From Candidatus Cloacimonadales bacterium (GTDB lineage Bacteria; Cloacimonadota; Cloacimonadia; Cloacimonadales; JAFGVF01), in the NCBI GenBank assembly GCA_963667035.1, contig OY762964.1, positions 832,001 to 896,000 of the forward strand: 64,000 nt of DNA, given 5' to 3'. How positions within the stretch are numbered: the first letter of the stretch is position 1; each line of letters opens with the position of its first letter. The position numbers and the translations under genes are program-made. The notes under the pieces were generated by a model. The model saw only the letters and a list, made by a program, of their open reading frames with translations, had not been told where the DNA came from and ran no database searches. Of this stretch, positions 21,126 through 54,610 are shown one piece after another.

Positions 21126-21221
21126 TATCGGTAATTTAATCGTTTATAAAGAACAGAACCAGTAAAAAGATAGAATAAAATGTAGTTGACTTATATATCT
21201 TATTATCAGTATGTTACTACT

Positions 21222-40039: not shown

Positions 40040-40267
40040 AACAATTCTCTTAATTTTATCTATTGTTAGTAATCTTCTGTAGGAATATTTGTCAATGTAA
40101 TTCAAGGTATACGCTACATTGATTATATTTATCTCCAACAGACTGCTTATAATGTTTCAGATAGAACTAATTATAATAACGAATATACTTATGGAAGTAA
40201 CATTATTAATGAATAAAAAAAGCCCGGTTTTAAAACCGGGCTCATAAAGTGATAGCTCTAAAAGAAT

Positions 40268-40558
40268 CTAATATCTTCTACCGCCACCGTTACCGCCTCT
40301 GTAGCTGTTGTTACGTTCAGGACGTGGTCTTGCTTCGTTAACGGTTAGTGCACGGCCACTAAGTTCTTTGCCGTTCATCTCTTCGATTGCCTTTTTAGCA
40401 GCGTCAGCATCAGGCATTTCGATAAAACCGAAACCCTTTGATCTGCCGTCATGGTCTGTAATGATGCGAGCTGAGTCTACTGCACCATATGCTTCAAAAG
40501 CTTCTTGTAAGTCAGCTTCTGAAAGTCTGTAAGAAATATTTCCTACATAAATATTCAT
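40268..40558 (-). CDS. RRM RNA-binding protein with Gly/Arg-rich tail
   Basis: RNP2 IYVGNI and RNP1 KGFGFIEM. Confidence 0.93.
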   Translation of the reverse strand: MNIYVGNISYRLSEADLQEAFEAYGAVDSARIITDHDGRSKGFGFIEMPDADAAKKAIEEMNGKELSGRALTVNEARPRPERNNSYRGGNGGGRRY

Positions 40559-40797
40559 CTGGAAATCCTTGAATCTACCCGGTAATTATAATCATTAGGC
40601 AAATCCCGGGAGAAAGTTGCGTATGATGCCAACATATTCTGGTGAAGGCTCCGGCTCAACGTTGAAGGAATCAAAGGTGAGACACTACTATTACTCGAAT
40701 CAAATTTTCAATTCAATTTCATTCTTTTTAAGCCACAATCTTTTGTCAATATGATTATCTAAAAAATCTAATTTTTTTTTTCGGGGAATCAAAATCT

Positions 40798-41166
40798 CTA
40801 ACTTCCCATTATGTTGTTATTTAAGTTCTGCCTCACGGATTCCAGATTATCATTTGCTTTGGAAGGTAAGTTTTGTAGGAACTTTTCAAGCTCTTCACAT
40901 TTGTAGGAACTGCATAAAGCACAGTTGTCAACACCCCTTTTTATGGCACAATGTCGGATAGTACACTCTCCACAGAATCCAATTTGTACTCCGTCACTTT
41001 TACAACCTGAACAGCCTATGTCAGCCGGATCAATCTCCATACCGCTATTCTTTGACCAAATCTCTGCGAGCTTCTCTCGTAACTCATCATCATTGTTCAT
41101 TGTTGCTTTGTAAGCATCGCATTCGTAGCAATCCAATCCACAGTAAGCAAGTTTGCGATTCATCAT
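40798..41166 (-). CDS. DUF3795-like Cys-rich protein
   Basis: AYCGLDCYEC..C.GC..C..C.IRHCA..NCALC..YKC. Confidence 0.8.
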   Translation of the reverse strand: MMNRKLAYCGLDCYECDAYKATMNNDDELREKLAEIWSKNSGMEIDPADIGCSGCKSDGVQIGFCGECTIRHCAIKRGVDNCALCSSYKCEELEKFLQNLPSKANDNLESVRQNLNNNIMGS

Positions 41167-41403
41167 ATCCCCTAGTATTCAGTTTCACTAAAACTGTAAG
41201 TTTGGATTTAATTGTCAAACATTAATCACTTGGAAGATAACAAGCATTAGGTTCTGATTGCAGTAACTTGTTATTACTTTATGGCTTAACATAGAATTTA
41301 AAACTTAAAATAAATGATCGAATCATGTGTTTATAGGCAAGTACTGGCAAATAAAAAAAAACCGTTCAACTGAACGGTTCAAAAAACTATATTATGGAAA
41401 AGC

Positions 41404-41583
41404 TTACTCAGCTAATTTCGCTCCATCTATGTTACGACAGTTTTTACAAACCTTTACAGTTTTTTCGCCTGCTTTAACTTCGTGGAGAAGCTTGATTCCT
41501 GTTCTTCCACAAGATGGACATTCACCTCTTGCTGAACCAGGAATTGTTTGTTTTAATAATTTACCACGGTGGTTCTTAGCCAT
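41404..41583 (-). CDS. 59-aa basic zinc-ribbon protein, absent from the ORF track
   Basis: MAKNHRGKLLKQTIPGSARGECPSCGRTGIKLLHEVKAGEKTVKVCKNCRNIDGAKLAE; AAGGAG RBS; own terminator at about 41353-41379. Confidence 0.85.
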   Translation of the reverse strand: MAKNHRGKLLKQTIPGSARGECPSCGRTGIKLLHEVKAGEKTVKVCKNCRNIDGAKLAE

Positions 41584-41892
41584 TAATATACTCCTTAAGT
41601 TTCTAACTATTTGCCCAACATTTTGATTAAGAGCTTTTTAGTCAAGAAGTTTGTGATAAAACGGTATTGTGCTATGCTTTAACTGTCTCTTATGGGGGTA
41701 TCTTATCTTAAACAAAGTCAATAGCGGTTTTAGTGTTACCATATTCATTATTTGATAAAAAAGACGATAAAGTATTGTAAGGATGAATCTCTTCACTTGG
41801 TAATGAAACACTTAACGTGATTTTGCTTTACAAATTCAACCGTTCTAATTTCTTGCAATCATAAGAAATACTATACTTTAAGGAGTCGTCTT

Positions 41893-43269
41893 ATGAAACA
41901 AGTCGGTTTTAAATTTCCTTCAGAGATACGCCAAACTGCTCTAACTCGTGTTGAAGAGGAGTGGTACTTACCTACTCTTGCAAAAAAGCTCGGTAGAGAG
42001 ATAACCCCGGTTAAGAGAAGTAATTTTGGCGAATATGACATGGCAGTACATTACTTAACAACTGTTCTTGAAGAAGCTAAGGCAGTGGAAAAAGTAGCTG
42101 TTTATAATATTGATCATATGGCTCAAATAAGATTTACAGGTAAAGATGCTCTTGCTCTTCTGGACAGAGTACTTCCGGCTAATGTTGAATCCATGAAAAT
42201 AGGTCAGTGTAAATATACACTTCTTCTCAATGAGAAGGGTGGAGTTCAGGATGACTTGATTATCATGAGAGTTGCCGAGGATGATTTCATTCTCGTTATT
42301 AATGCAGGTCACGATTTAACTGATACCGTTGACGGTGTTGAATACATCGCTGATGTCGATAGAATACTTGCTCACAAGAAAGAGGATGAAGATGTTGTTG
42401 CAGAAGACATCTCAGATAAACTCGTTAAGATAGATGTACAAGGACCTTACTCATATAAACTTCTTAAGACTCTTTACGGTCAAGATGTACTTAGAAATCG
42501 TAATAAACCTGATAAGAACATGGGATTCTTCTCATTTAATGAGTTCGATTATGAAGGTAACCATTACTTTATAAGTCGTACTGGATACACTAACAGATGG
42601 GGTTGGGAACTCTATGTTCCGGTTGAAGTTGCTGAAGAACAATTTAAGAGAATCGTATCTGAAGCTTTGGATTTAGGTGGTTTACTAGTAGGTTTAGGCG
42701 GAAGAGATGAGAATCGCTTATCTGCAGGTAATGTAGGTCTTCCTTTAATGGGACAGGAATATACACCGGGTATGACTCCAACAAATGCACCGTTGTTTAA
42801 CGCTGCCTTTGATCTTGATTCAGAGTTTGTCGGTAAAGAAGCTATCATTAATGATATTAAATCAGGTACAGATAAGAGAATGGTACTTGTTATCAGCGAA
42901 GGTATAGCAACTCACAGAGCAGTATATAAAGATGGGGTAAGACTTGGAGAAGTTACGTCAAGTATCAATTCACCTAATGTTTCTCAAGAGAAGAGAGAGT
43001 TTATCGGCTCTACTCGTAAGAGTGTTAATGGGGAAGAAGGCGTTGCGGCAATCGGTTTGGCTTGGCTTGCTAATAATCCTTATAACGTTGATGAAGAAGG
43101 AAACGATATCATAACCGATGGTGATAAACCAATCAGAATATATGTCGATTTCTATAAAGAGGACGAAGACGGTAATCCTAAAGGAAAACCTATGAAGGGT
43201 TACATCTCCGCTGACGGTGTTACACCTGCGACAGCTCCTAAAGCCCTTAAGAATATCGAGAAACTATAG
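41893..43269 (+). CDS. GcvT-family aminomethyltransferase/folate-binding protein
   Basis: IDHMAQI, GGVQDD, VQGP, SRTGYT..GWEL and GLGGRD motifs. Confidence 0.8.
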   Translation: MKQVGFKFPSEIRQTALTRVEEEWYLPTLAKKLGREITPVKRSNFGEYDMAVHYLTTVLEEAKAVEKVAVYNIDHMAQIRFTGKDALALLDRVLPANVESMKIGQCKYTLLLNEKGGVQDDLIIMRVAEDDFILVINAGHDLTDTVDGVEYIADVDRILAHKKEDEDVVAEDISDKLVKIDVQGPYSYKLLKTLYGQDVLRNRNKPDKNMGFFSFNEFDYEGNHYFISRTGYTNRWGWELYVPVEVAEEQFKRIVSEALDLGGLLVGLGGRDENRLSAGNVGLPLMGQEYTPGMTPTNAPLFNAAFDLDSEFVGKEAIINDIKSGTDKRMVLVISEGIATHRAVYKDGVRLGEVTSSINSPNVSQEKREFIGSTRKSVNGEEGVAAIGLAWLANNPYNVDEEGNDIITDGDKPIRIYVDFYKEDEDGNPKGKPMKGYISADGVTPATAPKALKNIEKL

Positions 43270-43322
43270 AAATAGTATTGTTATTATATATGAGCCTGTT
43301 GATTATTCGACAGGCTTTTTTA

Positions 43323-43472
43323 ATTAGTCGGTACGCGGACATCCTTGTCCGCATATCTTTAGGTGCACGGACATCTTGTCCGCATGTTTTTGGAACGCGG
43401 ACATCCTTGTCCGCACATGCATTTGATTTAAATCAAAGCCTGCAGGATGCAGGCGTACCCGGTGTACCCGGT
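43323..43472. repeat. family B REP cluster, block 1
   Basis: Three gg(t/a)acgcggacatc(c)ttgtccgca-like hairpins plus one inverted gcctgca/tgcaggc-gtacc. Confidence 0.85.
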
Positions 43473-43514
43473 GTAGTGCAAGAGCCCTCTCTTGCACATA
43501 GCTCAAGGAGCTAT
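43473..43514 (+). repeat. solo family A REP
   Basis: GTAG-tgcaagag-ccct-ctcttgca plus atagctc/gagctat; compensatory change relative to the RAYT-flanking copies. Confidence 0.85.
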
Positions 43515-43653
43515 GATTACAATCTAGAATCTCAGCTTAATTATAAGTGTAGTACAGCATCATTTAATTCTATCAAAAGATGTAGACAGTGGTACTACCA
43601 GTTAGTTACGCTATATTTGTGTCCCTTTTTCTTTCTCTCACTGCTAAAGTTAT

Positions 43654-43760
43654 CAACGCACTGCGTTTGCACTGTGCAGACACTATGATCACGGTGTCAA
43701 CCCACTGTTTCAGTGCGTGCACACTGCATTCACAGTGGATAAGCAGTGCGTTAAATGCGT
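43654..43760 (-). repeat. 11-bp phased CACTG/CAGTG array, copy 2 (inverted)
   Basis: Motifs at 43659, 43670, 43681, 43692, 43703, 43711, 43722, 43733, 43744, 43753; mirror image of copy 1 spacing. Confidence 0.8.
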
Positions 43761-43866
43761 ATTATTTAATAGTTCGCAGCAACCGAATTGAATCTGTGAA
43801 ATATCAAGAATTTCTATGTATTCATCTTTATTGACGATGAATATTGGATTTATTTATAGAGGTATC

Positions 43867-44015
43867 ATTAGTCGGTACGCGGACATCTTGTCCGCATATA
43901 TTAGGAACGCAAGCATCCTTGCTCGCATATCTTTAGGAACGCGGACATCCTGTCCGCACATGCATTTGATTTAATTCAAAGCCTGCAAGATGCAGGCGTA
44001 CCCGGTGTACCCGGT
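43867..44015. repeat. family B REP cluster, block 2
   Basis: About 150-bp direct repeat of 43323..43472. Confidence 0.85.
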
Positions 44016-44234
44016 ATGGTTGCAATCCTAAATGGATTACCTAATAATAGCCATAGGTCTCAACCTATGGAAAAGATACACCCTTATTATTGGGAGGGGT
44101 CATCGAGTATTCGTTTTAACAACCATGCATTTCATACAGGACTACTCATAGTTTATCCCGTCGGGATATAGACCTATTTGACTTGATTTCCTCTCCAATC
44201 TCATGATTCTCGCATGACAAATAAACACATCAAT

Positions 44235-44320
44235 CATGCAAGACTCTTGCATAACCCTTGCATAAATCCTGCATAATTATGTAAGAGAGTTGTAAGATTC
44301 TTGTAAGTTGGTTGTAAGCC
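44235..44320 (+). repeat. 11-bp phased CTTGC/GTAAG array
   Basis: C(A/T/C)TGC at 44235, 44246, 44257, 44268, then GTAAG at 44281, 44292, 44303, 44314. Confidence 0.75.
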
Positions 44321-44555
44321 TTCTGTGCTTGTTGGTCGAGTGGGATTCGGGGGAGAAAAGGGATAAAATAGTGTTGGCAAGTTACCCTTAAAAGTATCCA
44401 CCCTAGGGAGGTCAAAGTTTTACCAAAAAAATACTACGTAAACTACATGATGCAATATCATCAGAGAAAGATGAACAAAGTAAAGGAGAAGAGCTTACAA
44501 AAGATTCATCAAGGAATAAAAGAAAGATAATTAGAATATTTCCATTTTATATTAG

Positions 44556-45345
44556 TTCAACCCCTTCAGGGTTGCGGTTTTTTGGGGGGCATTTCCCATG
44601 CACGCAAGCGTACATGGCTATTTATATTCAGCACCTCCAGTGCTGATAACAATAATTCCGTCAGGGATAACTCCTAATAATTGTTAATCCTAAAGGGATT
44701 ACCTAATAATAGCCATAGGTTTTAACCTATGGAAAAGGAAACCACAACAATTATCGACCCTACATGGGTTGCACAGGAATAACCATGAAAGGTTTCAATA
44801 TGAATAGCCTTGAATGCAATTCGGGTAGTATGACAAGAATATGTTTCAAACCCGAACGATGGTTGAATTTATCTATGAAATCCGATCACGCCTGATCGGA
44901 TTATTGGCAGTTTAGGATTGCATCGACTATGTCGATGTACATTGACACAGTCAATGTACTGCTAAAGTGTTTAAACAGAATTTGTTGCTAATCATTATGG
45001 GTCGGGATAATAGGTTCTTAAATCAACAATTGGGCAACCCCGCTAAGTTTGAGTTTTTCGTGAACTCTTGCCCATGCACGCAAGCGTACATGGCTATTCA
45101 TATTCAGCACCTACAGTGCTGAGAACAATAATCCTGTCGGGATAATTCCTGCCAATTGTTAATCCTAAAGGGATTACCTAATAATAGCCATAGGTTTCAA
45201 CCTATGGAAAAGGAAACCCCAACAAGAATCGACCCTACATGGGTCGCACAGGAATAACCATGTAAGGTTTCAATATGAATAGCCCTGAATGTAAATTGGG
45301 GATTACGACAAGAATATGCTTCAACCCCAAACGATGGTTGAATTT
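44556..45345. repeat. family C multi-hairpin repeats, two ~276-bp cores
   Basis: Cores at 44595..44870 and 45071..45345; modules of hairpin-aatatgaa-TAGC-hairpin in both orientations; partial copy at 44024..44170. Confidence 0.85.
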
Positions 45346-45531
45346 GTTTATATAAATTGATTACACTAGACCTATGTATAACCATATTCAACCTACATTA
45401 AGGTCGGTCATCGAGGGAGGAACGTTGTAAAATGTTAGCTAATATTGCTATGAGACTTTTGTTGTTGACATTAAAAATCTAATACCTTTTTAATGTTTGA
45501 TAGAAATTGTTATTGATTAATGAGGTGCAAT

Positions 45532-48447
45532 ATGGGGAAAAAAGAGATTAAAACAATTGATGATTTAAGAGAACTTAGTAAACAGATTGATGTATTATAT
45601 AATCTAGGGAAAGAATCTGAAGGTTTAGATTTACTAAATTATGCTTTAGAACAATCCAAAGATATCGATGAAGCATATCACCTCTTCTTTCAAGGAGAAC
45701 TAGAAGGTTATGTAAACAGTGACCATGAAAAACGATTACAACTGTTTAGTGATGCATGTAAAATCGCTAAAGATGATTTTTTCTTGTTAAGAAATAAGGG
45801 TGCCAGTCTTTCGGTACTTGGAAAGATGGAAGAAGCCATTGAGTGTTTTGACAAAGCTTTAGAACTCAATCCTAAGGATTATAATGCATTTAGACAGAAG
45901 GGTGTCAGTCTTTCGGTACTTGGAAAGATGGAAGAAGCCATTGAGTGTTTTGACAAAGCTTTAGAACTCAATCCTAAGGATTATAATGCATTTAGAAGTA
46001 AGGGTGTCAGTCTTTCTAATCTTAACCGTGAAGAAGAAGCAATTGAGTATTATGACAAAGCCATAGAACTCAACCTTAAGGATTATAATGCATTTAGACA
46101 GAAGGGTGTCAGTCTTTCGGTACTTGGAAAGATGGAAGAAGCCATTGAGTGTTTTGACAAAGCTTTAGAACTCAATCCTAAGGATTATAATGCATTTAGA
46201 AGTAAGGGTGTCAGTCTTTCTAATCTTAACCGTGAAGAAGAAGCAATTGAGTATTATGACAAAGCCATAGAACTCAACCTTAAGGATTATAATGCATTTA
46301 GACAGAAGGGTGTCAGTCTTTCTTATCTTAACCGTGAAGAAGAAGCAATTGAGTATTATGACAAAGCCATAGAACTCAATCCTAAGGATTATGATGCTTT
46401 TAGACAGAAGGGTGTCAGTCTTTCAATACTTGGAAAGATGGAAGAAGCAATTGAGTATTATGACAAAGCCATAGAACTCAATCCTAAGGATTATGATGCT
46501 TTTAGAGGTAAGGGTGTCAGTCTTTCTAAGCTTAACCGTGAAGAAGAAGCAATTGAGTATTATGACAAAGCCATAGAACTCAATCCTAAAGATGCATTTG
46601 CTTTTAGAAGTAAGGGTATCAGTCTTTCTAATCTTAACCGTGAAGAAGAAGCAATTGAGTATTATGACAAAGCCATAGAACTCAATCCTAAGGATTATGA
46701 TGCTTTTAGAAGTAAGGGTGTCAGTCTTTCTAAGCTTAACCGTGAAGAAGAAGCAATTGAGTATTATGACAAAGCCATAGAACTCAATCCTAAGGATTAT
46801 GATGCTTTTAGAGGTAAGGGTGTCAGTCTTGGAAAACTTGGAAGGCTTGAAGCATCTATAGTAGAGTTCGACAAAGCCATAGAACTCAATCCTAAAGATG
46901 CATTTGCTTTTAGAAGTAAGGGTATCAGTCTTTCTAAGCTTAACCGTGAAGAAGAAGCAATTGAGTATTTTTACAGAGCTTTAGAGCTCAATCCTAAGGA
47001 TTATGATTCTCTTTTGTTTTTAGGTAATATCCAATACAGACAAGGTAAATATGAGCATGCTAAGCAGCTATTCAACAGGGCTAAACAAACTGCTAAGTAT
47101 AATGATAGTAGAAGTGAATTGAAGCAGTGGGTTCAATTCATGCTAAAAGGGATTGATGCAAAACTACATGATTCATCACAAAAAAATGAAATCGATATAA
47201 AAGATGTAATACATTCAGCTCAGAAAGCAATGAAATATGAATTCAGTGGTTTTAAGAAAAATATGAAGGAGACAGAAGAACTACTAGATTGTTTCATCAC
47301 AGATCAGCCACAATCTAAGTATGAACAGAGTCTGCTATTTACTTTAAGGAAATGGAATTCTTACACTCCAATTTTACCTATGGATAATGGTGAAAGATCA
47401 ATCGGTGGCGGATACTTTATCACGCATCACGGAGAAGGTATAGTAATAGACCCGGGGTTTAACTTCATTGAAAACTTTTGTAATGCAGGATTTGTTCTTA
47501 AAGATATCAATAAAATTATCATTACACATGGACATAATGACCATACAGGTGATTTGGAGTCTCTACTGACATTGTTTTATAAATTGAATGATTTTGATAA
47601 TAATGAGGTTAAGAAACAGAGAGTAGAACTTTACATGAATTTGGGCTCATTTCAAAAATTTGCTGGATTTTTAAACTTAAAAAGTACAAGTTTCATCAAT
47701 AAAATAGTTGTCATAAGCGAGAAGATGTCTATAGAAATCGCTGAAGGGCTAATCATGAATGTACTTCCTGCTTACCACGATGAAATAGTATGTAGAGATT
47801 ATGCTGTTGGCTTGGAGTTTGAGTTTCACTTTAATAATGCCAAATCTAAATCTATTGTTCTTACATCTGATACAGGATATTATCCATCAGATAAAAATGG
47901 TATCTCAAGTACAAAAGATAAAGATGCACTTAGTAGTAGGTACGGTTTTGATGAGGGAAAAGAAATAGATTTGCTAATTCTGCATCTTGGCTCAATAAAA
48001 GAAAGTGAGATTGAGTTAGAAAAAGAATTGAAGGAAGTATTCTATCCTAATCATCTGGGGTTCTTAGGCACATCATGTATGATGTCAAAACTCAAACCTA
48101 AAGTTTCTGTGATTTCTGAATTTGGGGAAGAGTTGAAAAAATTCAGAAAACCCTTAATGGACTTATTTAAAGAAGTTATGAAAGAGCTTGATATTGATGT
48201 AAGACTTTTACCTGCAGATCTCACATTTGTTTATGATATTGAGAACGCAAAATTATATAGTGTTTTGGATGAGAAAAAAGAACCAATAAGTAATATGGAC
48301 TATGATTATATTGAAGACACTAATACTTTTTATTACTATAGCAAAGAATCTAAAAAGAGTATAGCTAATTTACAAAGTAAGGGAGAGAAGTTTATGTCAG
48401 ATCGAAAAACAAAAGGTTTTTACCTAAAACAAGAAAAGGTTAAATAG
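45532..48447 (+). CDS. TPR-array protein fused to a metallo-beta-lactamase-fold hydrolase
   Basis: 12 near-identical 34-aa TPRs; VIDPG, THGHNDH (HxHxDH), AYHD, TSDTG and NHLG motifs; ATG at 45532 after GAGGTG. Confidence 0.88.
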   Translation: MGKKEIKTIDDLRELSKQIDVLYNLGKESEGLDLLNYALEQSKDIDEAYHLFFQGELEGYVNSDHEKRLQLFSDACKIAKDDFFLLRNKGASLSVLGKMEEAIECFDKALELNPKDYNAFRQKGVSLSVLGKMEEAIECFDKALELNPKDYNAFRSKGVSLSNLNREEEAIEYYDKAIELNLKDYNAFRQKGVSLSVLGKMEEAIECFDKALELNPKDYNAFRSKGVSLSNLNREEEAIEYYDKAIELNLKDYNAFRQKGVSLSYLNREEEAIEYYDKAIELNPKDYDAFRQKGVSLSILGKMEEAIEYYDKAIELNPKDYDAFRGKGVSLSKLNREEEAIEYYDKAIELNPKDAFAFRSKGISLSNLNREEEAIEYYDKAIELNPKDYDAFRSKGVSLSKLNREEEAIEYYDKAIELNPKDYDAFRGKGVSLGKLGRLEASIVEFDKAIELNPKDAFAFRSKGISLSKLNREEEAIEYFYRALELNPKDYDSLLFLGNIQYRQGKYEHAKQLFNRAKQTAKYNDSRSELKQWVQFMLKGIDAKLHDSSQKNEIDIKDVIHSAQKAMKYEFSGFKKNMKETEELLDCFITDQPQSKYEQSLLFTLRKWNSYTPILPMDNGERSIGGGYFITHHGEGIVIDPGFNFIENFCNAGFVLKDINKIIITHGHNDHTGDLESLLTLFYKLNDFDNNEVKKQRVELYMNLGSFQKFAGFLNLKSTSFINKIVVISEKMSIEIAEGLIMNVLPAYHDEIVCRDYAVGLEFEFHFNNAKSKSIVLTSDTGYYPSDKNGISSTKDKDALSSRYGFDEGKEIDLLILHLGSIKESEIELEKELKEVFYPNHLGFLGTSCMMSKLKPKVSVISEFGEELKKFRKPLMDLFKEVMKELDIDVRLLPADLTFVYDIENAKLYSVLDEKKEPISNMDYDYIEDTNTFYYYSKESKKSIANLQSKGEKFMSDRKTKGFYLKQEKVK
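45796..47019 (+). repeat. 12 x 102-bp intragenic tandem repeat
   Basis: aagggt recurs every 102 bp from 45796 to 46918; units 2-3 are duplicated as units 4-5. Confidence 0.95.
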
Positions 48448-48457
48448 TTGATGCAAT

Positions 48458-48905
48458 CCAATCCCTTTAGGGTTGCAGTTTATTTTGGGGGTAACTTCCC
48501 ATGCACGCAAGCGTACATGGCTATTCATATTCAGCACCTACAGTGCTGAGAGCAATAATTCCGTCGGGATAATTCCTTACAATTGTTAATCCTGAAGGGA
48601 TTACCTAATAATAGCCATAGGTTTCAACCTATGGAAAAGGAATCCACAACAAGAATCGACCCTACATGGGTCGCACAAGAATTTACCCTGAAAAGGGTTA
48701 CATTTGAGTAGCCCCGAATGCAATTCGGGGTCATGATACCCGAATCCATATCAACCCCAACGGTGGTTGAATTTATTAATGTAACTCGATCACCCTTGAT
48801 TGAAGTGTAAAAATATTCGACCCACTTTGGGGTCGGTTGCCGTTGGTGTATTAGTAACCATGCATTTCATACATGGCTACTCATATTTAATCCCTTTGGG
48901 ATAAG
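48458..48905. repeat. family C multi-hairpin repeat, third core
   Basis: Core 48498..48774 is a direct repeat of the cores at 44595 and 45071. Confidence 0.85.
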
Positions 48906-48967
48906 GATATTATTCCCACCTCCTCTTTTCTCTTGACACTATCAAACCCTCTAAAACTGTTTAAGCT

Positions 48968-50137
48968 ATGGAAATAACAGTCAAAAAATTCGGTGGGACT
49001 TCGGTTGCCGGCATAGAGAAGATAAAACGAATAGCACAAAACCTTGCTGATGCAAAGCGTCGAGGGGAGAACATTGTGACCGTAGTATCGGCTATGGGTA
49101 AGACGACTGATAACCTTACCAGACTAGCTTATAAAGTAACCGGTAATCCCGGAAAAAGAGAAATGGACATGCTACTCACTGCCGGTGAGAGAATAAGTAT
49201 GTCACTACTTTCCATTGCACTACAAGACCTTGGAGTTGAGTCTATCTCATTTACCGGTTCACAGAGCGGGATTATTACCAATTGTAATCACGGTAATGCC
49301 AGAATACTGGATGTGAAAGCTTTTCGTATAAGAGAGGAGCTTGAAAAGGGAAAACTTGTGATTGTTGCCGGATTTCAAGGAGTAAGCGGACAAAAAGAGG
49401 TTACAACTCTGGGCAGAGGAGGCTCGGATACAACCGCTGTTGCACTTGCTGCTTATCTGGGAGCAAAACATTGTGAGATTTATACCGATGTTGACGGGAT
49501 TTATACCACTGATCCGCGTTATAATGATAATGCCGAATGTTTGAAACAAATTGACTATGGTAGCTGCATTGCATTAGCTGCCAGAGGAGCTCAGGTTATA
49601 CATCCGAGAGCTGTAGAATTTGCAAGCATTTACGGTATTGACGTTGAAGTGAAATCTTCATTCACATTCAGTGTGGGAACAATGATAGGAGATAGCGAAG
49701 AAATGGAAGAACGTAAAATAACAGCTTTAACCTCCAGAGAGGATTTGTTAGCAGTAACGATAGATTGTGAAGAGCTTTACGGACGTATCATAGAAAAGAT
49801 TGGCTTTGAGCTCTTTGCCTATCAGATTGATAAAGGCAATCTGATTCTGTTTCTTGAAGATAAATATGAGAGTGAACTGGTTGATATTCTTAGTAAGCTT
49901 GAATGTCAGCCCTGTTTGATGCAAAGAAATATAAGTTGTATCACAGTAGTTGGGGCAGGTATTCAATCTAATCTGATATTGGTTAGAGAGCTACTCGAAC
50001 TATTCAAAGAAGAACAAGAAACCCTGCTATACATGAACACACCGATTAACGGAATCTCCTTTTACATTGAGAGTGAGAAAATTACTGATTTAGTATCTGA
50101 TATTCATAATAGATTTATAGAAACCAAGGATAAATAG
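48968..50137 (+). CDS. aspartate kinase
   Basis: KFGGTSV, VVSAMG, TTLGRGGSD and YTDVDG motifs; degenerate ACT region. Confidence 0.92.
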   Translation: MEITVKKFGGTSVAGIEKIKRIAQNLADAKRRGENIVTVVSAMGKTTDNLTRLAYKVTGNPGKREMDMLLTAGERISMSLLSIALQDLGVESISFTGSQSGIITNCNHGNARILDVKAFRIREELEKGKLVIVAGFQGVSGQKEVTTLGRGGSDTTAVALAAYLGAKHCEIYTDVDGIYTTDPRYNDNAECLKQIDYGSCIALAARGAQVIHPRAVEFASIYGIDVEVKSSFTFSVGTMIGDSEEMEERKITALTSREDLLAVTIDCEELYGRIIEKIGFELFAYQIDKGNLILFLEDKYESELVDILSKLECQPCLMQRNISCITVVGAGIQSNLILVRELLELFKEEQETLLYMNTPINGISFYIESEKITDLVSDIHNRFIETKDK

Positions 50138-52156
50138 ATGGGAAAATATTTAGTAACAAGCGCTTTACCGTATGCAAACGGTAAACTTCATATAGGACAC
50201 GTTGCCGGAGCTTATTTACCGGCTGATATATTCGTGAGATACAGAAGATTGCATGAAGAAGATGTAATCTATATTTGCGGAACCGACGAGCATGGTGCAC
50301 CAATCTCGATTGCTGCCGAGAAAGAGGGACTAAAGCCACAGGATATAGTGGATAGATACCATAAGAGTATTAAAGATAGTTTTGACGGACTTAACATCGA
50401 CTTCGATAACTTCTCGGGTACTGCAAGAAAACCACATCACGGTTTAGCTCAACAGTTCTTTACCGAGTTGCTTGCTAACGGTTACATAACTACCAAACAT
50501 AGCAGTCAATTCTTTGATGAGAAAGAGAATAGGTTCTTACCTGACAGATACATAGAAGGAATATGCCCTCATTGTAATGCTGAAGGAGCCAGGGGTGATC
50601 AATGCGATGCTTGCGGTAAACTAATTGATGCAGAGACTTTGATTAATCCCGTGAGTAAGATATCTGGTTCAACACCTGTCTTGAAAGAGACTTATCATTG
50701 GTATCTGGACCTGCCTAAATTTAATGAGAAACTTCAAACCTGGCTCGGAAGTAAGGACTACTGGAAAGAGAATGTTGTTAATTTCATCATGAGCTGGTTG
50801 AAAGAAGGTTTGATTGAAAGAGCTATTACAAGAGATATAAACTGGGGCGTGCCTGTTCCTGTGGACAATGCCGAGGGAAAAGTACTTTATGTATGGTTTG
50901 ATGCACCTATCGGTTATATATCATCAACCAAAGAATGGGCGGAGCGTATCGGTGAGCCCGATAGATGGAAAGATTATTGGCTTGATAAAGAAACAAAGAT
51001 GATTCACTTCATCGGAAAAGACAATATTCCGTTCCATACAATAATCTGGCCGGCTCTATTAATGGGACAGAATGAAGGTTATGTATTACCTTATGATGTT
51101 CCTGCTAACGAATATTTGACTCTTGAGGGTGACAAGATTTCCACTAGCCGTAATTGGGCTATATGGGTGGAAGATTTTCTTAAACATTTTGATGGTGAGT
51201 ATCTGAGATATGTCTTAGCCGCTAATGCACCCGAGAGCAAAGATGCCGATTTCAATTGGAAAGAGTTTCAGGGTAAGATAAACAGTGAGCTTAATAACGT
51301 ATTCGGTAATCTTGTTAATCGTGTGTTTACTTTCACTAAGAAACGCTTTGAAGGTGTTATTGCAAAACCTGAAAACTTAAGCGATTATGCAGTAAATACT
51401 CTCAACGAAGTTGATACGCTGATAGCTGAAGTTGATAAAGCTTATGCAGGTTATCAAGTAAGAAGAGCTGTGAAGACTATTATGGATATTGCCCGAATAG
51501 GTAACAAATACTTTGATGAGACTCAACCTTGGAAGACTGTGAAAGAAACTCCGGAACAAACACAGGAAACTCTCTATGTTTGCGGAGAGATTATCAGAAA
51601 GATTTCAGTGGTATTTTATCCCGTAATGCCAAAGCATACAGAAACATTGCGTAAGATGATGAATCTCGAGCCAAAGCCGGTTTGGTCAAGTCTTGAGGGA
51701 GTTGAAACAATAGAACTTGGAGAGATTACTGCTCTCTTTAATAAGGTTGAAGATAAACAGGTTGAAGAGCAATTAGCCCTTCTTGAAGCTAATACAAAAG
51801 CAAACCGGAAGAAAGAAGTTGTACCTTTTAAAGAAGAAGTAGAGTTTGATGACTTCATGAAGCTGGATTTTAGAGTTGTGAAGATTATCTCAGCCGAGAA
51901 AGTGAAGAAAGCGGATAAGCTTCTGAAGGTTGAAGTTGAGGACGGAACAGGAATCAGAACAGTTGTTGCAGGTGTAGCTAAATACTACAAGCCGGAAGAC
52001 ATTATAGGCAAGAAAGTTATCATGTTAGTTAACCTGAAACCAAGAAAGCTTAGAGGTATTGAATCTCAAGGTATGATACTTGCTTGCTCTGATGATGAGA
52101 ACTTATCATTCCTTTCCCCTGAAAAAGATTTTGATCCCGGGACGGTAGTATCTTAG
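50138..52156 (+). CDS. metG: methionine--tRNA ligase
   Basis: LPYANG.LHIGH, GTDEHG, YVWFDA and KISTS motifs; C-terminal tRNA-binding OB domain. Confidence 0.97.
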   Translation: MGKYLVTSALPYANGKLHIGHVAGAYLPADIFVRYRRLHEEDVIYICGTDEHGAPISIAAEKEGLKPQDIVDRYHKSIKDSFDGLNIDFDNFSGTARKPHHGLAQQFFTELLANGYITTKHSSQFFDEKENRFLPDRYIEGICPHCNAEGARGDQCDACGKLIDAETLINPVSKISGSTPVLKETYHWYLDLPKFNEKLQTWLGSKDYWKENVVNFIMSWLKEGLIERAITRDINWGVPVPVDNAEGKVLYVWFDAPIGYISSTKEWAERIGEPDRWKDYWLDKETKMIHFIGKDNIPFHTIIWPALLMGQNEGYVLPYDVPANEYLTLEGDKISTSRNWAIWVEDFLKHFDGEYLRYVLAANAPESKDADFNWKEFQGKINSELNNVFGNLVNRVFTFTKKRFEGVIAKPENLSDYAVNTLNEVDTLIAEVDKAYAGYQVRRAVKTIMDIARIGNKYFDETQPWKTVKETPEQTQETLYVCGEIIRKISVVFYPVMPKHTETLRKMMNLEPKPVWSSLEGVETIELGEITALFNKVEDKQVEEQLALLEANTKANRKKEVVPFKEEVEFDDFMKLDFRVVKIISAEKVKKADKLLKVEVEDGTGIRTVVAGVAKYYKPEDIIGKKVIMLVNLKPRKLRGIESQGMILACSDDENLSFLSPEKDFDPGTVVS

Positions 52157-52194
52157 CAAAAATCTCAACTATATTCCTGTTACTATTCGTAACT

Positions 52195-53559
52195 TTGTCA
52201 CTCTTCTCTTTCAAAATTGAGGGAGAGGAACTGTTCGTTGATGTATTAATAGCATCCGGTGATTCATTGATGCTTGATTCTGTGACCTTTGATCTTGTTG
52301 ACAAAGAGGTAGAATCGTTATCTACACCTATAGCAGTCACGATTGATACAACTTATGCTGACATTAAGTACCTGACAAAGGAACGGCATCAGTATGCTGA
52401 GCGTTGTATTGAACATAGATTATTCTTAAAAAATATGCACCTATCTGAGGTAGATGAGTGGTATTATAGCCTGAATAATCTGGAAGTTATGATGCATGAG
52501 AAGTCCGGTGGTGGAGATCTTATTGAGCGTGAAATACACTTTGGCAGGTTCATGATAAATAGTAATGGTGAAGAGAGATTCACTAAGTCCCGAATAACAA
52601 AATTCGATGCAGTAGCATTGACTATTGATGGTTTTGAAGGTACCTATTCCGGTACCTTCAGTTTACTTGCTCATGAAGGAAAAATTGGGATTGTACAACA
52701 GGTTCCTTTTGAGGAGTATGTGATTGGTGTTGTCGCTTCTGAGATAGGTGACTTTGCACCTGATGAAGCTCTAAAAGCCCAAGCGATAGCAGCAAGAAGT
52801 AAGACTGTCAGAACCCTATTGCACCCTCGAAATGAATATCCCTATATTGATTTCTGTAATACTACCACAACACAAGTCTATAGAGGAACCGATAAAGTTA
52901 GACCAAATATCAGGGAGGCTGTTGAAGCCACAAAGGGGCAGGTTCTTACCTATAACGAAGATATTATTGATGCACTCTTTAGTAGTAATTGCGGAGGAGT
53001 AACCGAATCAAATAATAATGTCTGGAAAGGTGATGCTATTCCATACTTACAAAGTGTAAGTGATATCCCGATTGCAGTTGATTACAATTTAAAATCGGAC
53101 GCAGGAGCGAAAAGCTGGATTGATTCAAAATATGTTCCCGAGTCAAAGCAGGAACTTGCCAGTTGGCAGAAGAAGTATTTTCATTGGGTAAGAAATGTTA
53201 AGATAGAAGATGTAGAAGCCAAGACAGGAATAAATAGGATTCTGGATGTTAAAGTACTTAAAAGGGGAGATTCGGGAAGAGTCCTTCAACTACAAGTTAA
53301 TGGTGATGAATCAAAGATACTTAAGAATCAAAGCGAGATTAGAGCAGTCTTTGGAGGACTACCAAGCTCTTTATGCTATTTTGTTAGGACAAAAAGCGGA
53401 TTTAAGGTTATAGGCAGAGGATACGGACACGGAGTAGGCATGTGTCAATCCGGTGCAATAGTCAAAGCTTTTGACGGATGGAATTATAAAAGGATTCTTT
53501 CTCATTATTATCACGGAACAGAGATAGATACCCTTAAGATACTTGATATTTACAAATAA
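52195..53559 (+). CDS. SpoIID/LytB-domain lytic transglycosylase
   Basis: EEYV.GVV.SE, EALKAQAIAARS, QVY.G and GYGHGVGMCQ motifs; true start probably slightly upstream. Confidence 0.88.
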   Translation: MSLFSFKIEGEELFVDVLIASGDSLMLDSVTFDLVDKEVESLSTPIAVTIDTTYADIKYLTKERHQYAERCIEHRLFLKNMHLSEVDEWYYSLNNLEVMMHEKSGGGDLIEREIHFGRFMINSNGEERFTKSRITKFDAVALTIDGFEGTYSGTFSLLAHEGKIGIVQQVPFEEYVIGVVASEIGDFAPDEALKAQAIAARSKTVRTLLHPRNEYPYIDFCNTTTTQVYRGTDKVRPNIREAVEATKGQVLTYNEDIIDALFSSNCGGVTESNNNVWKGDAIPYLQSVSDIPIAVDYNLKSDAGAKSWIDSKYVPESKQELASWQKKYFHWVRNVKIEDVEAKTGINRILDVKVLKRGDSGRVLQLQVNGDESKILKNQSEIRAVFGGLPSSLCYFVRTKSGFKVIGRGYGHGVGMCQSGAIVKAFDGWNYKRILSHYYHGTEIDTLKILDIYK

Positions 53560-53629
53560 TGATTGACTTTGATTTAGAATTAAAGAAAAATAACATAAAT
53601 AATGAAAAGCGTGAAGGAGATAAGGCAGT

Positions 53630-54610
53630 ATGATTAATATGACAACCAAATATCTCGGGTTAACCCTAAAGAATCCAATAGTAATAGCTTCGAGTGGTCT
53701 AACCAATAATCTGGAATCTTTGATTGAATTGGAAAAGAACAACGCAGGTGCGGTAGTTTTAAAATCATTGTTTGAAGAACAGATTAGAATGCAGGTTGAA
53801 TCAGCCTTAAAAGACAGTATTAATCAATATCCCGGAGGAGAAGATTATCTCCGTTATTATGAAGAAAGAAATGTTTTAGATAACTACCTGAAGCTAATAA
53901 AAGATGCAAAAGCTAATCTTTCTATCCCTGTAATTGCCAGTTTAAACTGTACAACCGGTGGTGAATGGACTAAATTTGCTAAAGAAATAGAAAAAGCTGG
54001 TGCGGATGCAATCGAAGTTAATATATTCAGATTACCCTTTGATCTTCAGGATAGTAAAGCTGTTCACGAAGAGACTTATGGTCATATAATCAGAGATATC
54101 AAAGCTAATGTCAGCATTCCTGTTGCAGCTAAGATTGGTAAGTTCTTTACTAATCCTGCTATTTTCATTCAGAAGCTTGCTTTTAGCGGTGCTGACGGTA
54201 TAGTCTTGTTTAATAGATTCTATGGGGTTGATATTGATTTGGATAAAGAAGAAGTTGTGAACGGTAATCATTACAGTACAGCAAATGAGTTTTCGGATGC
54301 TATGAGATGGACTGCTTTCCTTTCAGATAGAATCAAAGCTGATATCTGTGGAAGTACTGGTATTCATACTTGGGAAGAGGGTATGAAAATATTGCTTGCC
54401 GGTGCTACAGCCTTTGAGATTGCCTCAACATTGTACATCAATGGAATTGAGAAGATTAATGACATCCTATCAGGAATGATTAAGTGGATGGAAGCACACA
54501 ATTATACCAGTATTGAGAGTTTAATCGGTAAACTCAAACATTCCGGTGATAAGAACAGCGAGATGTATGAACGAGTTCAATTCATGCTTTATCAAACAAA
54601 GCATGTCTAA
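53630..54610 (+). CDS. dihydroorotate dehydrogenase-like flavoprotein
   Basis: YLGLTLKNP, AVVLKSLFEEQI and GADGIVLFNRFY motifs. Confidence 0.85.
   Translation: MINMTTKYLGLTLKNPIVIASSGLTNNLESLIELEKNNAGAVVLKSLFEEQIRMQVESALKDSINQYPGGEDYLRYYEERNVLDNYLKLIKDAKANLSIPVIASLNCTTGGEWTKFAKEIEKAGADAIEVNIFRLPFDLQDSKAVHEETYGHIIRDIKANVSIPVAAKIGKFFTNPAIFIQKLAFSGADGIVLFNRFYGVDIDLDKEEVVNGNHYSTANEFSDAMRWTAFLSDRIKADICGSTGIHTWEEGMKILLAGATAFEIASTLYINGIEKINDILSGMIKWMEAHNYTSIESLIGKLKHSGDKNSEMYERVQFMLYQTKHV

Follow-up and report, generated by a model that had tools for sequence, protein, structure and literature searches.

A tandem array of near-identical TPR units fused to an RNase Z-like metallo-beta-lactamase module in a Candidatus Cloacimonadales bacterium: anatomy, family and possible roles

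What does a protein do that carries twelve near-identical tetratricopeptide repeats (TPRs) in front of a metallo-beta-lactamase (MBL) fold hydrolase? The question is raised by one gene in the window, i.e., the whole 64,000-nucleotide stretch of contig OY762964.1 (Candidatus Cloacimonadales bacterium) that was analysed. A preliminary description, made from the letters of the DNA, had proposed a single-gene, possibly anti-phage system in which shuffled repeats act as a sensor that gates the enzyme. The gene is a single intact open reading frame (ORF) on the forward strand (Table 1). The start first assigned to it, 45532, lies in the same ORF and gives the form deposited in the protein collection, but it is the second ATG, the first being at 45520. 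The GC content is 0.336 for the gene, 0.313 for its C-terminal part and 0.39 for its neighbours. A scan for sigma-70 promoters was dominated by matches recurring inside the TPR units and was hence not used, and a search of positions 40000-50000 of the window against Rfam (E<=0.1) returned no match.

Table 1. Features of the gene and its surroundings, in window positions
Feature	Position	Strand	Remarks
Dispersed ~300-nt intergenic element, copy upstream of the gene	45071..45364		further copy at 44596-44889
Whole ORF	45520..48447	+	975 aa; 971 aa from the second ATG (45532); stop codon 48445-48447
N-terminal helical cap, aa 1-86	45520..45777	+	family-conserved (consensus); degenerate TPR-like hairpins; helices 13-82 in the full-length model
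Twelve 102-bp TPR units, aa 87-494, canonical register	45778..47001	+	Tandem Repeats Finder (TRF), Pfam, unit alignment
Exact 246-nt duplication, lag 204	45873..46322	+	45873-46118 = 46077-46322; units 2-3 = units 4-5
Degenerate 13th TPR and capping helices, aa 495-550	47002..47169	+	alignment, full-length model
Low-confidence tether from TPR solenoid to catalytic module, aa 552-567	47173..47220	+	pLDDT<50 in the full-length model
Family-specific long helix, aa 568-594	47221..47301	+	much of the predicted homodimer interface (models)
MBL-fold core, aa 600-905	47317..48234	+	RNase Z / class II phosphodiesterase clade; profiles, model
WNSYTP motif, aa 612-617	47353..47370	+	family signature; used as search pattern
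HxHxDH metal-binding motif (H670, H672, D674, H675)	47527..47544	+	sequence alignments
C-terminal beta-strands and long helix, aa 906-975	48235..48444	+	models
Terminator-like hairpin, then T run	48459..48475	+	12 nt past the stop codon; weak, folding z-score -1.4
Same dispersed element, direct copy downstream of the gene	48498..48800		95% over 185 nt

Tandem Repeats Finder assigned the array a period of 102 with 11.9 copies, 83% matches and a score of 1364, together with higher-order periods of 204 and 306 nt (89-90%). These values and the exact 246-nt run bear out the twelve near-identical units, and the copying of units 2-3 as units 4-5, that had been noticed at the outset. DNA identity between unit pairs ranged from 67 to 100%, with unit 2 equal to unit 4 and unit 3 to unit 5 at 100%, and the 13th unit is degenerate (~40% identical). 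In the 3.10-Mb genome the array is the only one of period 102 and ranks third by score among 24 TRF rows, and it therefore lies far beyond chance. Pfam TPR_1 scored 341.3 bits against a cut-off of 27.8 over 13 stretches, which places the repeats in the TPR family, and the model showed paired helices of 13-14 residues each throughout residues 87-525. By residue count, the net charge per unit is acidic. A GKM loop is found in units 1, 2, 4, and 7 and an NRE loop in seven units; the idea that variable sites recombine independently with these two loop types was overstated, the sole hybrid being unit 7, which combines the GKM loop with the other helix-B type.

Canonical TPR numbering was set by aligning the family profile to engineered consensus TPRs in a PDB profile search, which was swamped by TPR columns and useful for register only. 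Three or more different residues occur across the 12 units at positions 2, 6, 9, 13, 17, and 23. Four of these six fall within the set {2, 5, 6, 9, 12, 13} (hypergeometric p=0.0043), which we take, on the general pattern of TPRs rather than from coordinates, to line the ligand groove. The four, positions 2, 6, 9, and 13, are located on one helix-A face; 17 and 23 lie outside the set. Entropy over five arrays was highest at positions 2, 13, 17, and 6, and the groove set differed from the rest in five-array mean entropy (Mann-Whitney p=0.01), although the contrast was non-significant in two of the five arrays (p=0.056 and p=0.18) and some top variable positions (10, 17, 24) lay outside the set in four of them. 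The concentration of variation on one helix-A face recurs across the five independently expanded arrays. Beside this variable stripe, residues R5, K7, G8, L11, and S12 are kept in units across the family, with R5 and K7 present in 12/12 window units, S12 in 11/12, and all three predominant in the other four arrays. The ratio pN/pS was 0.72-1.09 at groove codons and 0.35-0.98 elsewhere, reaching 0.82-1.75 for four positions picked post hoc. These values indicate relaxed constraint and not clearly positive selection; a groove ratio of ~1 is as compatible with a surface that simply tolerates change as with diversification under selection.

Array length is plastic across the family. DNA-level tandem repeats were detected in 35 of 77 family genes, 21 of them with the period of 102 (2.4-13.7 copies by TRF), and the number of window-type units per homologue ranges from 0 to 14, so that repeat number is not fixed among homologues, in line with the variable arrays initially proposed. 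Four other homologues carry arrays of 10-14 units, and some homologues have 43-aa units. Nucleotide identity was 0.78-0.90 within an array versus 0.51-0.64 between proteins; the arrays have expanded independently in homologues.

The C-terminal part scored 38.6-40.2 bits on Lactamase_B (cut-off 22.7) and 36.1 on Lactamase_B_2 (cut-off 27), and it has the motifs of the metallo-beta-lactamase superfamily (D, HxHxDH, H, D, H) and its alpha-beta/beta-alpha sandwich fold. In an alignment of 54 full-length relatives, residues D644, H670, H672, D674, H675, H753, D784, H822, and H845 never vary, and the metal ligands are also invariant in a second alignment of 65 sequences; beyond HxHxDH, the alignments make H753, D784, H822, and H845 candidate ligands. 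Also invariant in the 54 relatives are N613, S614, T616, and P617, G629, G631, and Y632 of the GGGY motif, and the DPG motif, while W612 and G630 are nearly so (>=90%). The AlphaFold model of this domain (pLDDT 89.9, pTM 0.90) was compared with known structures by VIA-align, giving YhfI (6kns, Z 24.6, rmsd 2.4 over 243 residues), an ElaC homologue (1zkp, Z 24.6), an arylsulfatase (8gyg, Z 24.5), RNase Z (1y44, Z 24.1), PDE1 (Z 22.1), and Apyc1 (Z 20.9), and Foldseek agreed with these fold matches. Since YhfI, the ElaC homologue, and RNase Z match equally (Z ~24), the domain is placed among the class II phosphodiesterases and RNase Z-type enzymes. The retained metal motifs and RNase Z-like affinity noted earlier are thus upheld by the invariant ligands and the fold matches. 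On the RNase Z equivalog model TIGR02651 the protein scored 28.7 bits, far below the cut-off of 292.95. Sequence matches of the C-terminal part in the PDB were weak (best 2p4z at 1.3e-6), and a BFVD fold search returned nothing beyond generic MBL proteins. In the available part of one study, YhfI, PDE1, Apyc1, and RNase Z are described as HxHxDH two-zinc homodimers, with cAMP/cGMP preferred by YhfI (PMC9117128).

The full-length model (pLDDT 90.7, pTM 0.59) consists of TPR helices to residue 550, a tether at residues 552-567 with pLDDT<50, and an MBL module at residues 568-970. Fusion of the array to an MBL domain, a central claim of the preliminary description, is confirmed by the intact ORF and its complete metal ligands. 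The lack of a STAND/NACHT module is also confirmed, as the model leaves no room for one, and no NTPase (NACHT/NB-ARC) was present in the best 25 of 40 Pfam matches. Gating of the enzyme by the sensor, on the other hand, finds no structural support, because, given the tether and the low pTM, the model predicts no coupling of the modules. For the C-terminal module, homodimer prediction gave a score of 0.63, with 0.00 for the best of three controls, contact agreement of at least 77% between runs, and partner pLDDT of at least 80. Among proteins whose solved structures are one-chain pairs, 20 of 30 attained the pass mark, compared with 1 of 23 among those solved as single chains. The model supports, but does not demonstrate, binding, and the pass may mirror likeness to known structures, as solved dimers of the same fold exist.

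With 403 of 1.84 billion representatives matched at E<=1e-30, the family is rare; it is also patchy across phyla, its tree (quick IQ-TREE) departs from taxonomy, and the closest non-self match in the collections searched is 41-48% identical. The MBL query found the gene in none of three same-genus genomes, none of 11 same-family genomes, and none of the 40 relatives overall; it is an accessory gene. A single locus, a 1097-aa fused form, was present among viral contigs in the collection, so that the family is not typically phage-borne. No description of a TPR and MBL family, including in anti-phage or conflict contexts, was found in the open-access and bioRxiv library searched. The family is uncharacterised and horizontally scattered.

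The gene lies at a synteny break: in genome G001 the genes that flank it are 180 kb apart, with a PEGA-domain gene in the slot. Since copies of a dispersed element occur directly upstream and downstream (Table 1), it is bracketed by direct repeats. The window ORFs around it (41893-43266 and 48968-54607) have housekeeping or transport functions according to Pfam, and none of the 52 window ORFs scanned with Pfam belongs to a defence family, 7 of the 52 having no Pfam family at all. Against PADLOC-DB v2.0.0, the whole protein matched a generic TPR model only, plus a weak TPR-borne match to ZorE, and the C-terminal module matched no family; the window thus does not provide the anti-phage context that had been envisaged. 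Nor was there defence-island enrichment elsewhere, as PADLOC matches within three genes on either side of 24 TPR-fused homologues (24 of 34 eligible loci scanned) numbered 12/144, compared with 7/144 for control genes at least four positions away in the same loci (Fisher p=0.34). Most of the near matches were generic (cysteine desulfurase, RtcR-type activator, group II intron RT, Csa3 HTH).

Related loci show other arrangements. TPR-less paralogues form a sister clade (10 tree rows, SH-aLRT 94) whose operons also encode a DGQHR/DpdB-like protein, a radical SAM enzyme, an SNF2 helicase (ZorD/DpdE-like), and in some cases a GHKL ATPase. No description of a DGQHR / MBL / radical SAM / SNF2 operon was found in the open-access and bioRxiv library searched, and the tightly coupled trio with its SNF2 helicase may be the better lead to a new DNA-modification or defence system. 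At locus L040, genes for an HmaB-like methylase and an SNF2/PLD helicase are followed, in the same orientation, by a TPR-fused form. In two magnetotactic Nitrospirota (L081 and L084), the gene immediately preceding a TPR-less family member encodes a protein with receiver, HD_5, and TPR domains.

As an explanation of the whole, to which we give an even chance, the gene would encode a ligand-binding TPR arm on a flexible tether joined to a dimerising phosphodiesterase, in an uncharacterised and scattered family. The product would be a cytoplasmic two-module enzyme. Its first module would form a TPR solenoid of ~16 hairpins, the central units probably being near-identical because of recent tandem duplication and unequal exchange, with the changeable residues (canonical 2, 6, 9, and 13) forming a single helix-A stripe. 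The second, on the tether, would be a phosphodiesterase with a binuclear metal site, from the RNase Z / class II cyclic-nucleotide phosphodiesterase clade, which the models suggest is probably homodimeric via the family-specific helix that follows the tether. The ligand of the arm could be an extended one, a protein or peptide being the likeliest, and binding could either recruit the phosphodiesterase to a target or alter its oligomeric state, after which the enzyme might cleave a phosphodiester substrate, either a cyclic nucleotide or RNA/DNA. In this picture the anatomy, fold, conserved metal ligands, array plasticity, and accessory nature of the gene are observed, while ligand binding, module coupling, the substrate, and the biological role are inferred.

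A conflict or defence role for such a protein is possible, though it is not the default. In its specific form, which we consider doubtful, the array would recognise a phage protein, repeat shuffling would renew specificity, and binding would activate the MBL nuclease or phosphodiesterase without a STAND NTPase, leading to abortive infection or nucleic-acid degradation. The patchiness across phyla with a tree off taxonomy, the absence from the congeners examined, and the synteny break with dispersed repeats on both sides all suit this proposal, as do the arrays themselves, which are high in internal identity, differ in length, and vary along a helix-A stripe, like those of fungal NLRs (PMC4986451). 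The DGQHR/SNF2/radical SAM operons of the sister clade and the neighbours at L040 point the same way, but those operons belong to another clade with other partners, and the window itself has no defence island. MBL nucleases do act as defence effectors elsewhere (PMC12799240), but known defence MBLs are ComEC-like whereas the window domain is ElaC/YhfI-like and without a PADLOC family. A STAND-free sensor-effector has a precedent in Dsr1. The sensor of Dsr1 is shared with Avs7 (PMC13581612). Against renewal of specificity, pN/pS on the pre-defined groove set is not clearly greater than 1, and the near-versus-far comparison (p=0.34) argues against a defence setting of the homologues.

Turnover of a nucleotide second messenger, by a cyclic-nucleotide phosphodiesterase that the TPR arm positions on a signalling partner, appears improbable. 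The best fold matches include the cAMP/cGMP phosphodiesterases YhfI, PDE1, and Brucella 3md7 with bound GMP (PMC9117128), but RNase Z matches are tied with these enzymes. Many homologues have a precomputed Apyc1-family match of unstated strength and the nearest Atlas clusters carry Apyc1/Lactamase_B_2, but the window protein scored 12.2 bits on Apyc1 PF23023 (E 0.12) against a gathering cut-off of 50. The receiver and HD_5 protein of the Nitrospirota is seen at two related loci only, and occurrence in 0/40 relatives is unlike a core signalling enzyme. Still less probable is a reader of linear polymers (nucleic acid or extended peptide), in which, as in PPR, PUF, or TALE proteins, each repeat would read one polymer unit, R5, K7, and S12 holding the backbone and positions 2, 6, and 13 choosing that unit, to aim a dimeric RNase Z-type nuclease. 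The near-identical 34-aa modules, the basic or polar helix-A residues constant in units across distant phyla beside variable positions 2, 6, and 13, and the catalytic fold, which is that of RNA-processing nucleases, are consistent with it, but the units are net acidic, and many prokaryotic TPRs have the K-G pattern at positions 7-8. The suggestion we find hardest to credit is that the array arose in assembly, or that the gene is decaying. Three sequencing runs carry the stretch, all from one sample and none listed as RNA, and one run with the same species label lacks it. Short-read contigs of one sample break inside the array, none (and no read) crossing it, so that unit number and order are those of the assembly; one contig also connects 45345 to 48498 (30-nt side). 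However, this joint falls within the direct repeats bracketing the gene, can thus be a repeat-graph path, and is indistinguishable from one. The unique flanks and several internal unit junctions are matched by contigs at 0 differences, all 975 codons are open with every catalytic residue kept, and arrays of 10-14 units recur in four other homologues.

If the TPR arm does sense a ligand and control the phosphodiesterase, the protein would represent a prokaryotic NLR-like principle without an NTPase switch, in which high-identity repeats diversify via duplication and exchange, and an ElaC/YhfI-type enzyme would join the known effector repertoire. Were the array to read a polymer, it would be a natural programmable nuclease whose aim changes as repeats are duplicated and exchanged. 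Irrespective of its role, the family offers a natural series of 3 to 14 near-consensus repeats on a constant catalytic module, useful for learning how binding depends on array length and on the groove residues.

The whole-core fold is common to the window domain and YhfI (6kns/6knt), 1zkp, RNase Z (1y44, 2fk6), PDE1 (4ojv), and Apyc1 (7u2r/7u2s), with Z 20.9-24.6 over 233-255 residues. The HxHxDH motif and His/Asp ligands of YhfI/RNase Z-type enzymes are kept in the window family, and the homodimer predicted for the window module is reported for YhfI, PDE1, Apyc1, and RNase Z (PMC9117128). The window MBL is 12-18% identical to the YhfI/RNase Z-type enzymes and differs from them in an extra N-terminal long helix, the WNSYTP strand, the C-terminal beta/helix tail, and the TPR fusion. 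The fungal repeat-shuffling precedent invoked from the start is as stated: in the portion of the source available, NLR, HET-E, and NWD proteins have highly conserved WD40, ANK, or TPR repeats that vary in number and on their binding face (PMC4986451). The window family likewise combines high internal repeat identity, variable number, and variation on what we assume to be the binding face. Unlike the fungal NLRs, the window protein is prokaryotic, lacks NOD/NACHT/NB-ARC, and has pN/pS ~1 in place of demonstrated positive selection; fungal TPRs are mostly 42 aa (PMC4986451), compared with 34 aa here.

Among prokaryotic immune proteins, most Avs sensors are TPR-like, and Dsr1 and Avs7 have a common sensor, as far as the available text of the source goes (PMC13581612). 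As in these Avs/STAND and Dsr1 proteins, an alpha-solenoid sensor and an enzymatic effector are joined in one polypeptide in the window protein, which, unlike Avs/STAND, has no NTPase, an ElaC/YhfI-type MBL effector, and neither a PADLOC model nor a defence-island context. Dsr1, too, is not known to carry an NTPase. The MBL nucleases of Hachiman, AVAST, Lamassu, and DRT (HamM) are described as ComEC-like, encoded by genes of their own, and activated when a trypsin-like protease unmasks them in the accessible part of another study (PMC12799240); they share with the window protein the MBL superfamily, but the window MBL is of a different clade and has no protease partner. Finally, the engineered consensus TPRs 9qhb and 8bu0 align end to end with the family units (E 1.6e-125 and 9.8e-64), the window units belonging to a natural protein and carrying R, K, and S at positions 5, 7, and 12 in place of the consensus residues.

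The TPR-MBL gene is one uninterrupted ORF, and the start assigned to it in the preliminary description (45532) is its second ATG, yielding a 971-aa form that appears in a public protein collection as a one-member cluster (3,102,113-base contig). Tandem Repeats Finder (TRF) detected an array of period 102 with 11.9 copies and 83% matches, and the same array also shows periodicity of higher order, at 204 and 306 nt (89-90%). The twelve in-register TPR units share 67-100% identity at the DNA level, unit 2 being identical to unit 4 and unit 3 to unit 5, exact runs at a 204-nt lag reach 246 nt, and unit 13 is only ~40% identical. The 3.10-Mb genome has no other array of period 102, and by score this one ranks third among its 24 TRF rows. 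Pfam TPR_1 matched 13 stretches of the protein (341 bits), and Lactamase_B and Lactamase_B_2 exceeded their cut-offs in the C-terminal third. The ORF, the array, the unit identities, and the Pfam matches confirm the reported combination of a repeat array with an MBL domain.

The catalytic module was analyzed by aligning the last 431 residues of the protein with 64 homologues (piece numbering + 544 gives protein numbering). Residues W68, N69, S70, T72, and P73 of the family signature motif WNSYTP, the GGGY motif, D100-P-G, H126, H128, D130, H131, H209, D240, H278, H301, E323, G325, and E327 (piece numbering) were invariant. Most of these were confirmed in a second alignment of 54 full-length proteins, in which W612 and G630 were nearly invariant and E867 and E871 invariant. 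Given this invariance in both alignments, every metal ligand of MBL enzymes is retained, as had been proposed. The AlphaFold2 model of the C-terminal piece was confident (pLDDT 89.9, pTM 0.90), and its top PDB matches in Foldseek were an MBL arylsulfatase, the ElaC homologue 1zkp, B. subtilis YhfI, Apyc1, PNGM-1, and tRNase Z. In VIA-align, the matches of the model to YhfI (Z 24.6, rmsd 2.4, 243 aligned), 1zkp (24.6), 8gyg (24.5), RNase Z (24.1), ZipD (23.8), PDE1 (22.1), a PhnP-family enzyme (21.7), and Apyc1 (20.9) are essentially tied. The part of the source drawn on here describes the class of YhfI, PDE1, Apyc1, and RNase Z as HxHxDH two-zinc homodimers, and cAMP and cGMP as the preferred substrates of YhfI (PMC9117128). 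Membership of the curated families RNase_Z (28.7 bits, cut-off 292.95) and Apyc1 (12.2 bits, cut-off 50) failed. The MBL domain is predicted to work in the manner of ElaC and class II phosphodiesterases, yet it is a separate family, distinguished from those enzymes by a long helix at the N-terminus, the WNSYTP strand, and a beta/helix tail at the C-terminus.

Homodimer prediction of the C-terminal module gave a score of 0.63, the best of three controls reaching 0.00, with contact agreement of at least 77% and partner pLDDT of at least 80 in the runs. Among proteins of solved structure, 20 of 30 one-chain pairs and 1 of 23 single chains reached the mark. Residues adjoining the metal motifs contribute to the predicted interface, as does the family-specific helix (piece residues 14-45). 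The prediction favours binding, short of demonstrating it, and the pass may reflect likeness because dimers of this fold have already been solved. In the full-length model (pLDDT 90.7, pTM 0.59), a continuous TPR solenoid with helices from 13 to 550 is followed by a flexible tether and the catalytic module (568-970), residues 552-567 having pLDDT below 50. Each unit presents helix A at canonical positions 1-13 and helix B at 17-30, in a numbering fixed by alignment of engineered consensus TPR proteins with the family profile. The model does not pack the array against the active site, and the suggested gating of the enzyme by the array is therefore structurally unsupported here.

A word-indexed search with the C-terminal region retrieved 292 proteins at E<=1e-3 (540-1307 aa), nearly all with TPRs ahead of the MBL domain, the best being only 41-46% identical. 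An exhaustive phmmer search of 1.84 billion representatives found 1699 proteins at E<=1e-3, of which 1259 passed E<=1e-10 and 403 passed E<=1e-30. At least 200 residues precede WNSYTP in 182 of the 212 retrieved homologues with both signature motifs. Among one-genome-per-species contigs, relatives are encoded on 120 stretches; the 80 loci kept span Thermodesulfobacteriota, Nitrospirota, Planctomycetota, Bacillota, candidate phyla, and several archaeal lineages. The MBL query was not found in the 3 same-genus and 11 same-family genomes searched, and its matches in 4 of 40 relatives' genomes reached no better than E~1e-4. A viral contig collection yielded a single family locus. A quick maximum-likelihood tree of 71 rows, from which four ORFs lacking the motif and any ORF whose domain is below 300 aa were excluded, was discordant with taxonomy and placed the window protein in a 19-row clade (support 95), beside a Maridesulfovibrio protein.

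DNA-level tandem repeats are present in 35 of 77 family genes, window gene included, with period 102 in 21 (2.4-13.7 copies), period 129-132 in nine (a 43-aa TPR variant), and period 90 in two. These copy numbers and the 0 to 14 window-type TPR matches per homologue (212 homologues with both signature motifs) bear out the expected variation in repeat number between homologues. Mean nucleotide identity in the five longest 34-aa arrays is 0.78-0.90 inside an array compared with 0.51-0.64 across proteins, and the array of each lineage has therefore expanded or homogenised independently. Mean entropy over these arrays was highest at positions 2, 13, 17, 6, 24, and 10. Positions 2, 5, 6, 9, 12, and 13, which we take to line the groove, were more variable than the others (Mann-Whitney p=0.01 on the mean; 0.009-0.18 in single arrays), and this set holds 4 of the 6 window-array positions at which at least three residues occur (p=0.0043). 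The placement of variable sites at the presumed ligand groove holds as an enrichment, positions 17, 24, and 10 outside it also ranking high. Positions 2, 6, 9, and 13 are spaced 4-3-4 and so form one stripe of helix A; R5, K7, G8, L11, and S12 are conserved throughout the five arrays and recur in the family consensus. The two loop types described earlier are present, and their independent recombination with the variable sites has its slender footing in a single hybrid unit (unit 7). The pN/pS ratio was 0.72-1.09 at groove codons, 0.35-0.98 elsewhere, and 0.82-1.75 at four positions chosen after seeing the data; these values do not show selection to be positive. Array plasticity and the conserved and variable pattern of helix A suggest that an extended ligand could lie along the TPR groove.

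Pfam assigned only housekeeping and transport functions around the gene, with a GCV_T-like enzyme upstream and aspartokinase, MetRS, SpoIID, and a DHO_dh-type enzyme downstream, and no defence families were found among the 52 window ORFs scanned, 7 of which lack a Pfam family. ORF-poor stretches made up of dispersed repeats (3-31 genome copies) flank the gene, and a ~300-nt element brackets it as direct copies that share 95% identity over 185 nt. The genes on its two sides lie 180 kb apart in G001, a genome of the same genus, where a PEGA-domain gene together with a type IX secretion cargo gene is found instead upstream of aspartokinase; copies of the dispersed repeats of the flanking mosaics also occur there. 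The GC content is 0.336 for the gene, 0.313 for its C-terminal part, 0.39 for its neighbours, and 0.356 for the genome. The gene is accessory, in a variable slot, and outside any defence island. In each of three runs, a single short-read contig joins window positions 45345 and 48498 (30-nt side), which reflects either a variant lacking the gene or a repeat-graph path that runs through the direct repeats on its two sides; the sequencing runs containing this stretch are all from one sample, none of them RNA.

Homologue loci (L numbers) were compared using simple script ORF calls and all-against-all clustering, which found no conserved neighbour common to the TPR-fused forms. PADLOC (PADLOC-DB, 2023 version; E<=1e-10) was applied to three genes on each side in the first 24 of 34 eligible TPR-fused loci. 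Matches were found for 12 of 144 near proteins, spread over 11 loci, and for 7 of 144 control genes at least four positions away in the same loci (Fisher p=0.34), so the anticipated defence-island enrichment was not observed. The near matches were mostly generic, the credible ones being an AriA/HEC-01-like ATPase (L065), MzaA (L041), PDC-S03 (L008), and, directly upstream in L040, the methylase and helicase listed in the table. A TPR-less MBL form of 413-424 aa occurs at twelve loci, three of which instead carry an unassigned C-terminal extension. The fullest operons (L048, L052, L060) encode two unknown proteins, a ZorD/DpdE-like SNF2 helicase, another unknown protein, a DGQHR/DpdB-like protein, the TPR-less WNSYTP-type MBL protein, and a radical SAM protein; at the remaining loci the DGQHR/DpdB-like gene is beside the MBL gene in all and the radical SAM gene is present in most. 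A GHKL ATPase is added in L047, L051, and L075, and the last three operon genes of L060 overlap by 4 nt. The ten of these TPR-less forms included in the tree make up one clade (SH-aLRT 94). The operon seems to be a DNA-modification or defence cluster not described before; the open-access library searched yielded no account of it. In two magnetotactic Nitrospirota, the gene immediately upstream of a TPR-less family member codes for a protein with receiver, HD_5 (HD-GYP-type), and TPR domains. This catalytic module thus has several kinds of partner: DNA-modification and helicase genes, a signalling protein, and, most commonly, a TPR arm fused to it.

Coordinates of the gene, its surroundings, and selected homologue loci (L098 is a locus in G001)
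Sequence	Coordinates	Strand	Feature
Window	45520..48447	+	TPR-MBL gene, 975 codons
Window	45873-46118 = 46077-46322		Longest exact run at lag 204 nt
Window	43270-45520; 48447-48968		ORF-poor flanking stretches
Window	45071-45364; 48498-48800		Direct copies of ~300-nt element
Window	44596-44889		Further copy of ~300-nt element
Window	43325-43477 / 43874-44020		Paired modules made of short palindromes, in ORF-poor mosaic
Window	44193-44366		Non-coding patch, 82% identical to L098:6421-6594; no Rfam match
L098	6421-6594		Counterpart of patch (82% identical), ~2.1 kb upstream of aspartokinase
L098	3345-4142		Two tandem "23S rRNA-intervening sequence" protein genes, variable region upstream of aspartokinase
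Window	20644-21125 (genome 852644-853125)		Tandem repeat, period 197, 2.4 copies, 97% matches
Window	21186-21797		IS200-like Y1 transposase ORF, adjoining period-197 repeat
Window	3780-4493		rve-type integrase ORF
L040	993-11146	one strand	HmaB-like DNA methylase (979 aa), SNF2/PLD helicase (1185 aa), TPR-MBL protein (1157 aa)
L060	5089-12537		TPR-less MBL operon; also L045, L047-L052, L056, L061, L075, L080
L084	8083-9744		Receiver + HD_5 + TPR / TPR-less MBL
L081	8258-9898		Receiver + HD_5 + TPR / TPR-less MBL
L068	8732-11314		43-aa TPR variant in place of 34-aa units, also in 8 other homologue ORFs (44-aa in L072); period 129-132 nt, up to 7.1 copies at 91%
L067	8786-11137		Altiarchaeal; non-TPR 30-aa unit, 2-3 repeats ahead of the TPRs, 100% identical (93% in L065, also altiarchaeal)

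The anatomy of the protein and the family data favour a TPR arm that would bind a ligand and be carried on a predicted dimerising phosphodiesterase. That the protein is a scaffolded or regulated phosphodiesterase, with no biological role committed to, has in our estimate about an even chance of being right. A dedicated anti-phage sensor-effector, as originally proposed, could lie within or beside that reading and is a tentative option: the accessory, mobile character of the gene and the operonic TPR-less paralogues lend it some support, together with published precedents, whereas the window context with no defence family, the near and far PADLOC control, and the pN/pS values are negative or neutral. 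The receiver + HD_5 neighbour may indicate a connection with nucleotide second messengers, and a second-messenger role for the protein is rather unlikely. A polymer-reading TPR array seems very improbable, and an artefact still more so.

The precedents for the anti-phage option concern MBL effectors, TPR-like sensors, and fungal NLR repeats. Immune effectors include MBL nucleases, as stated in the portion of the source cited here (PMC12799240), and Avs sensors are mostly TPR-like, one sensor being common to Dsr1 and Avs7, according to the section of the work considered (PMC13581612). The 43-aa TPR variant of the homologues resembles the 42-aa TPRs of fungal NLRs, and the repeats of fungal NLRs, as far as they are treated in the part of the study used here (PMC4986451), behave similarly to the TPR arrays of this family.
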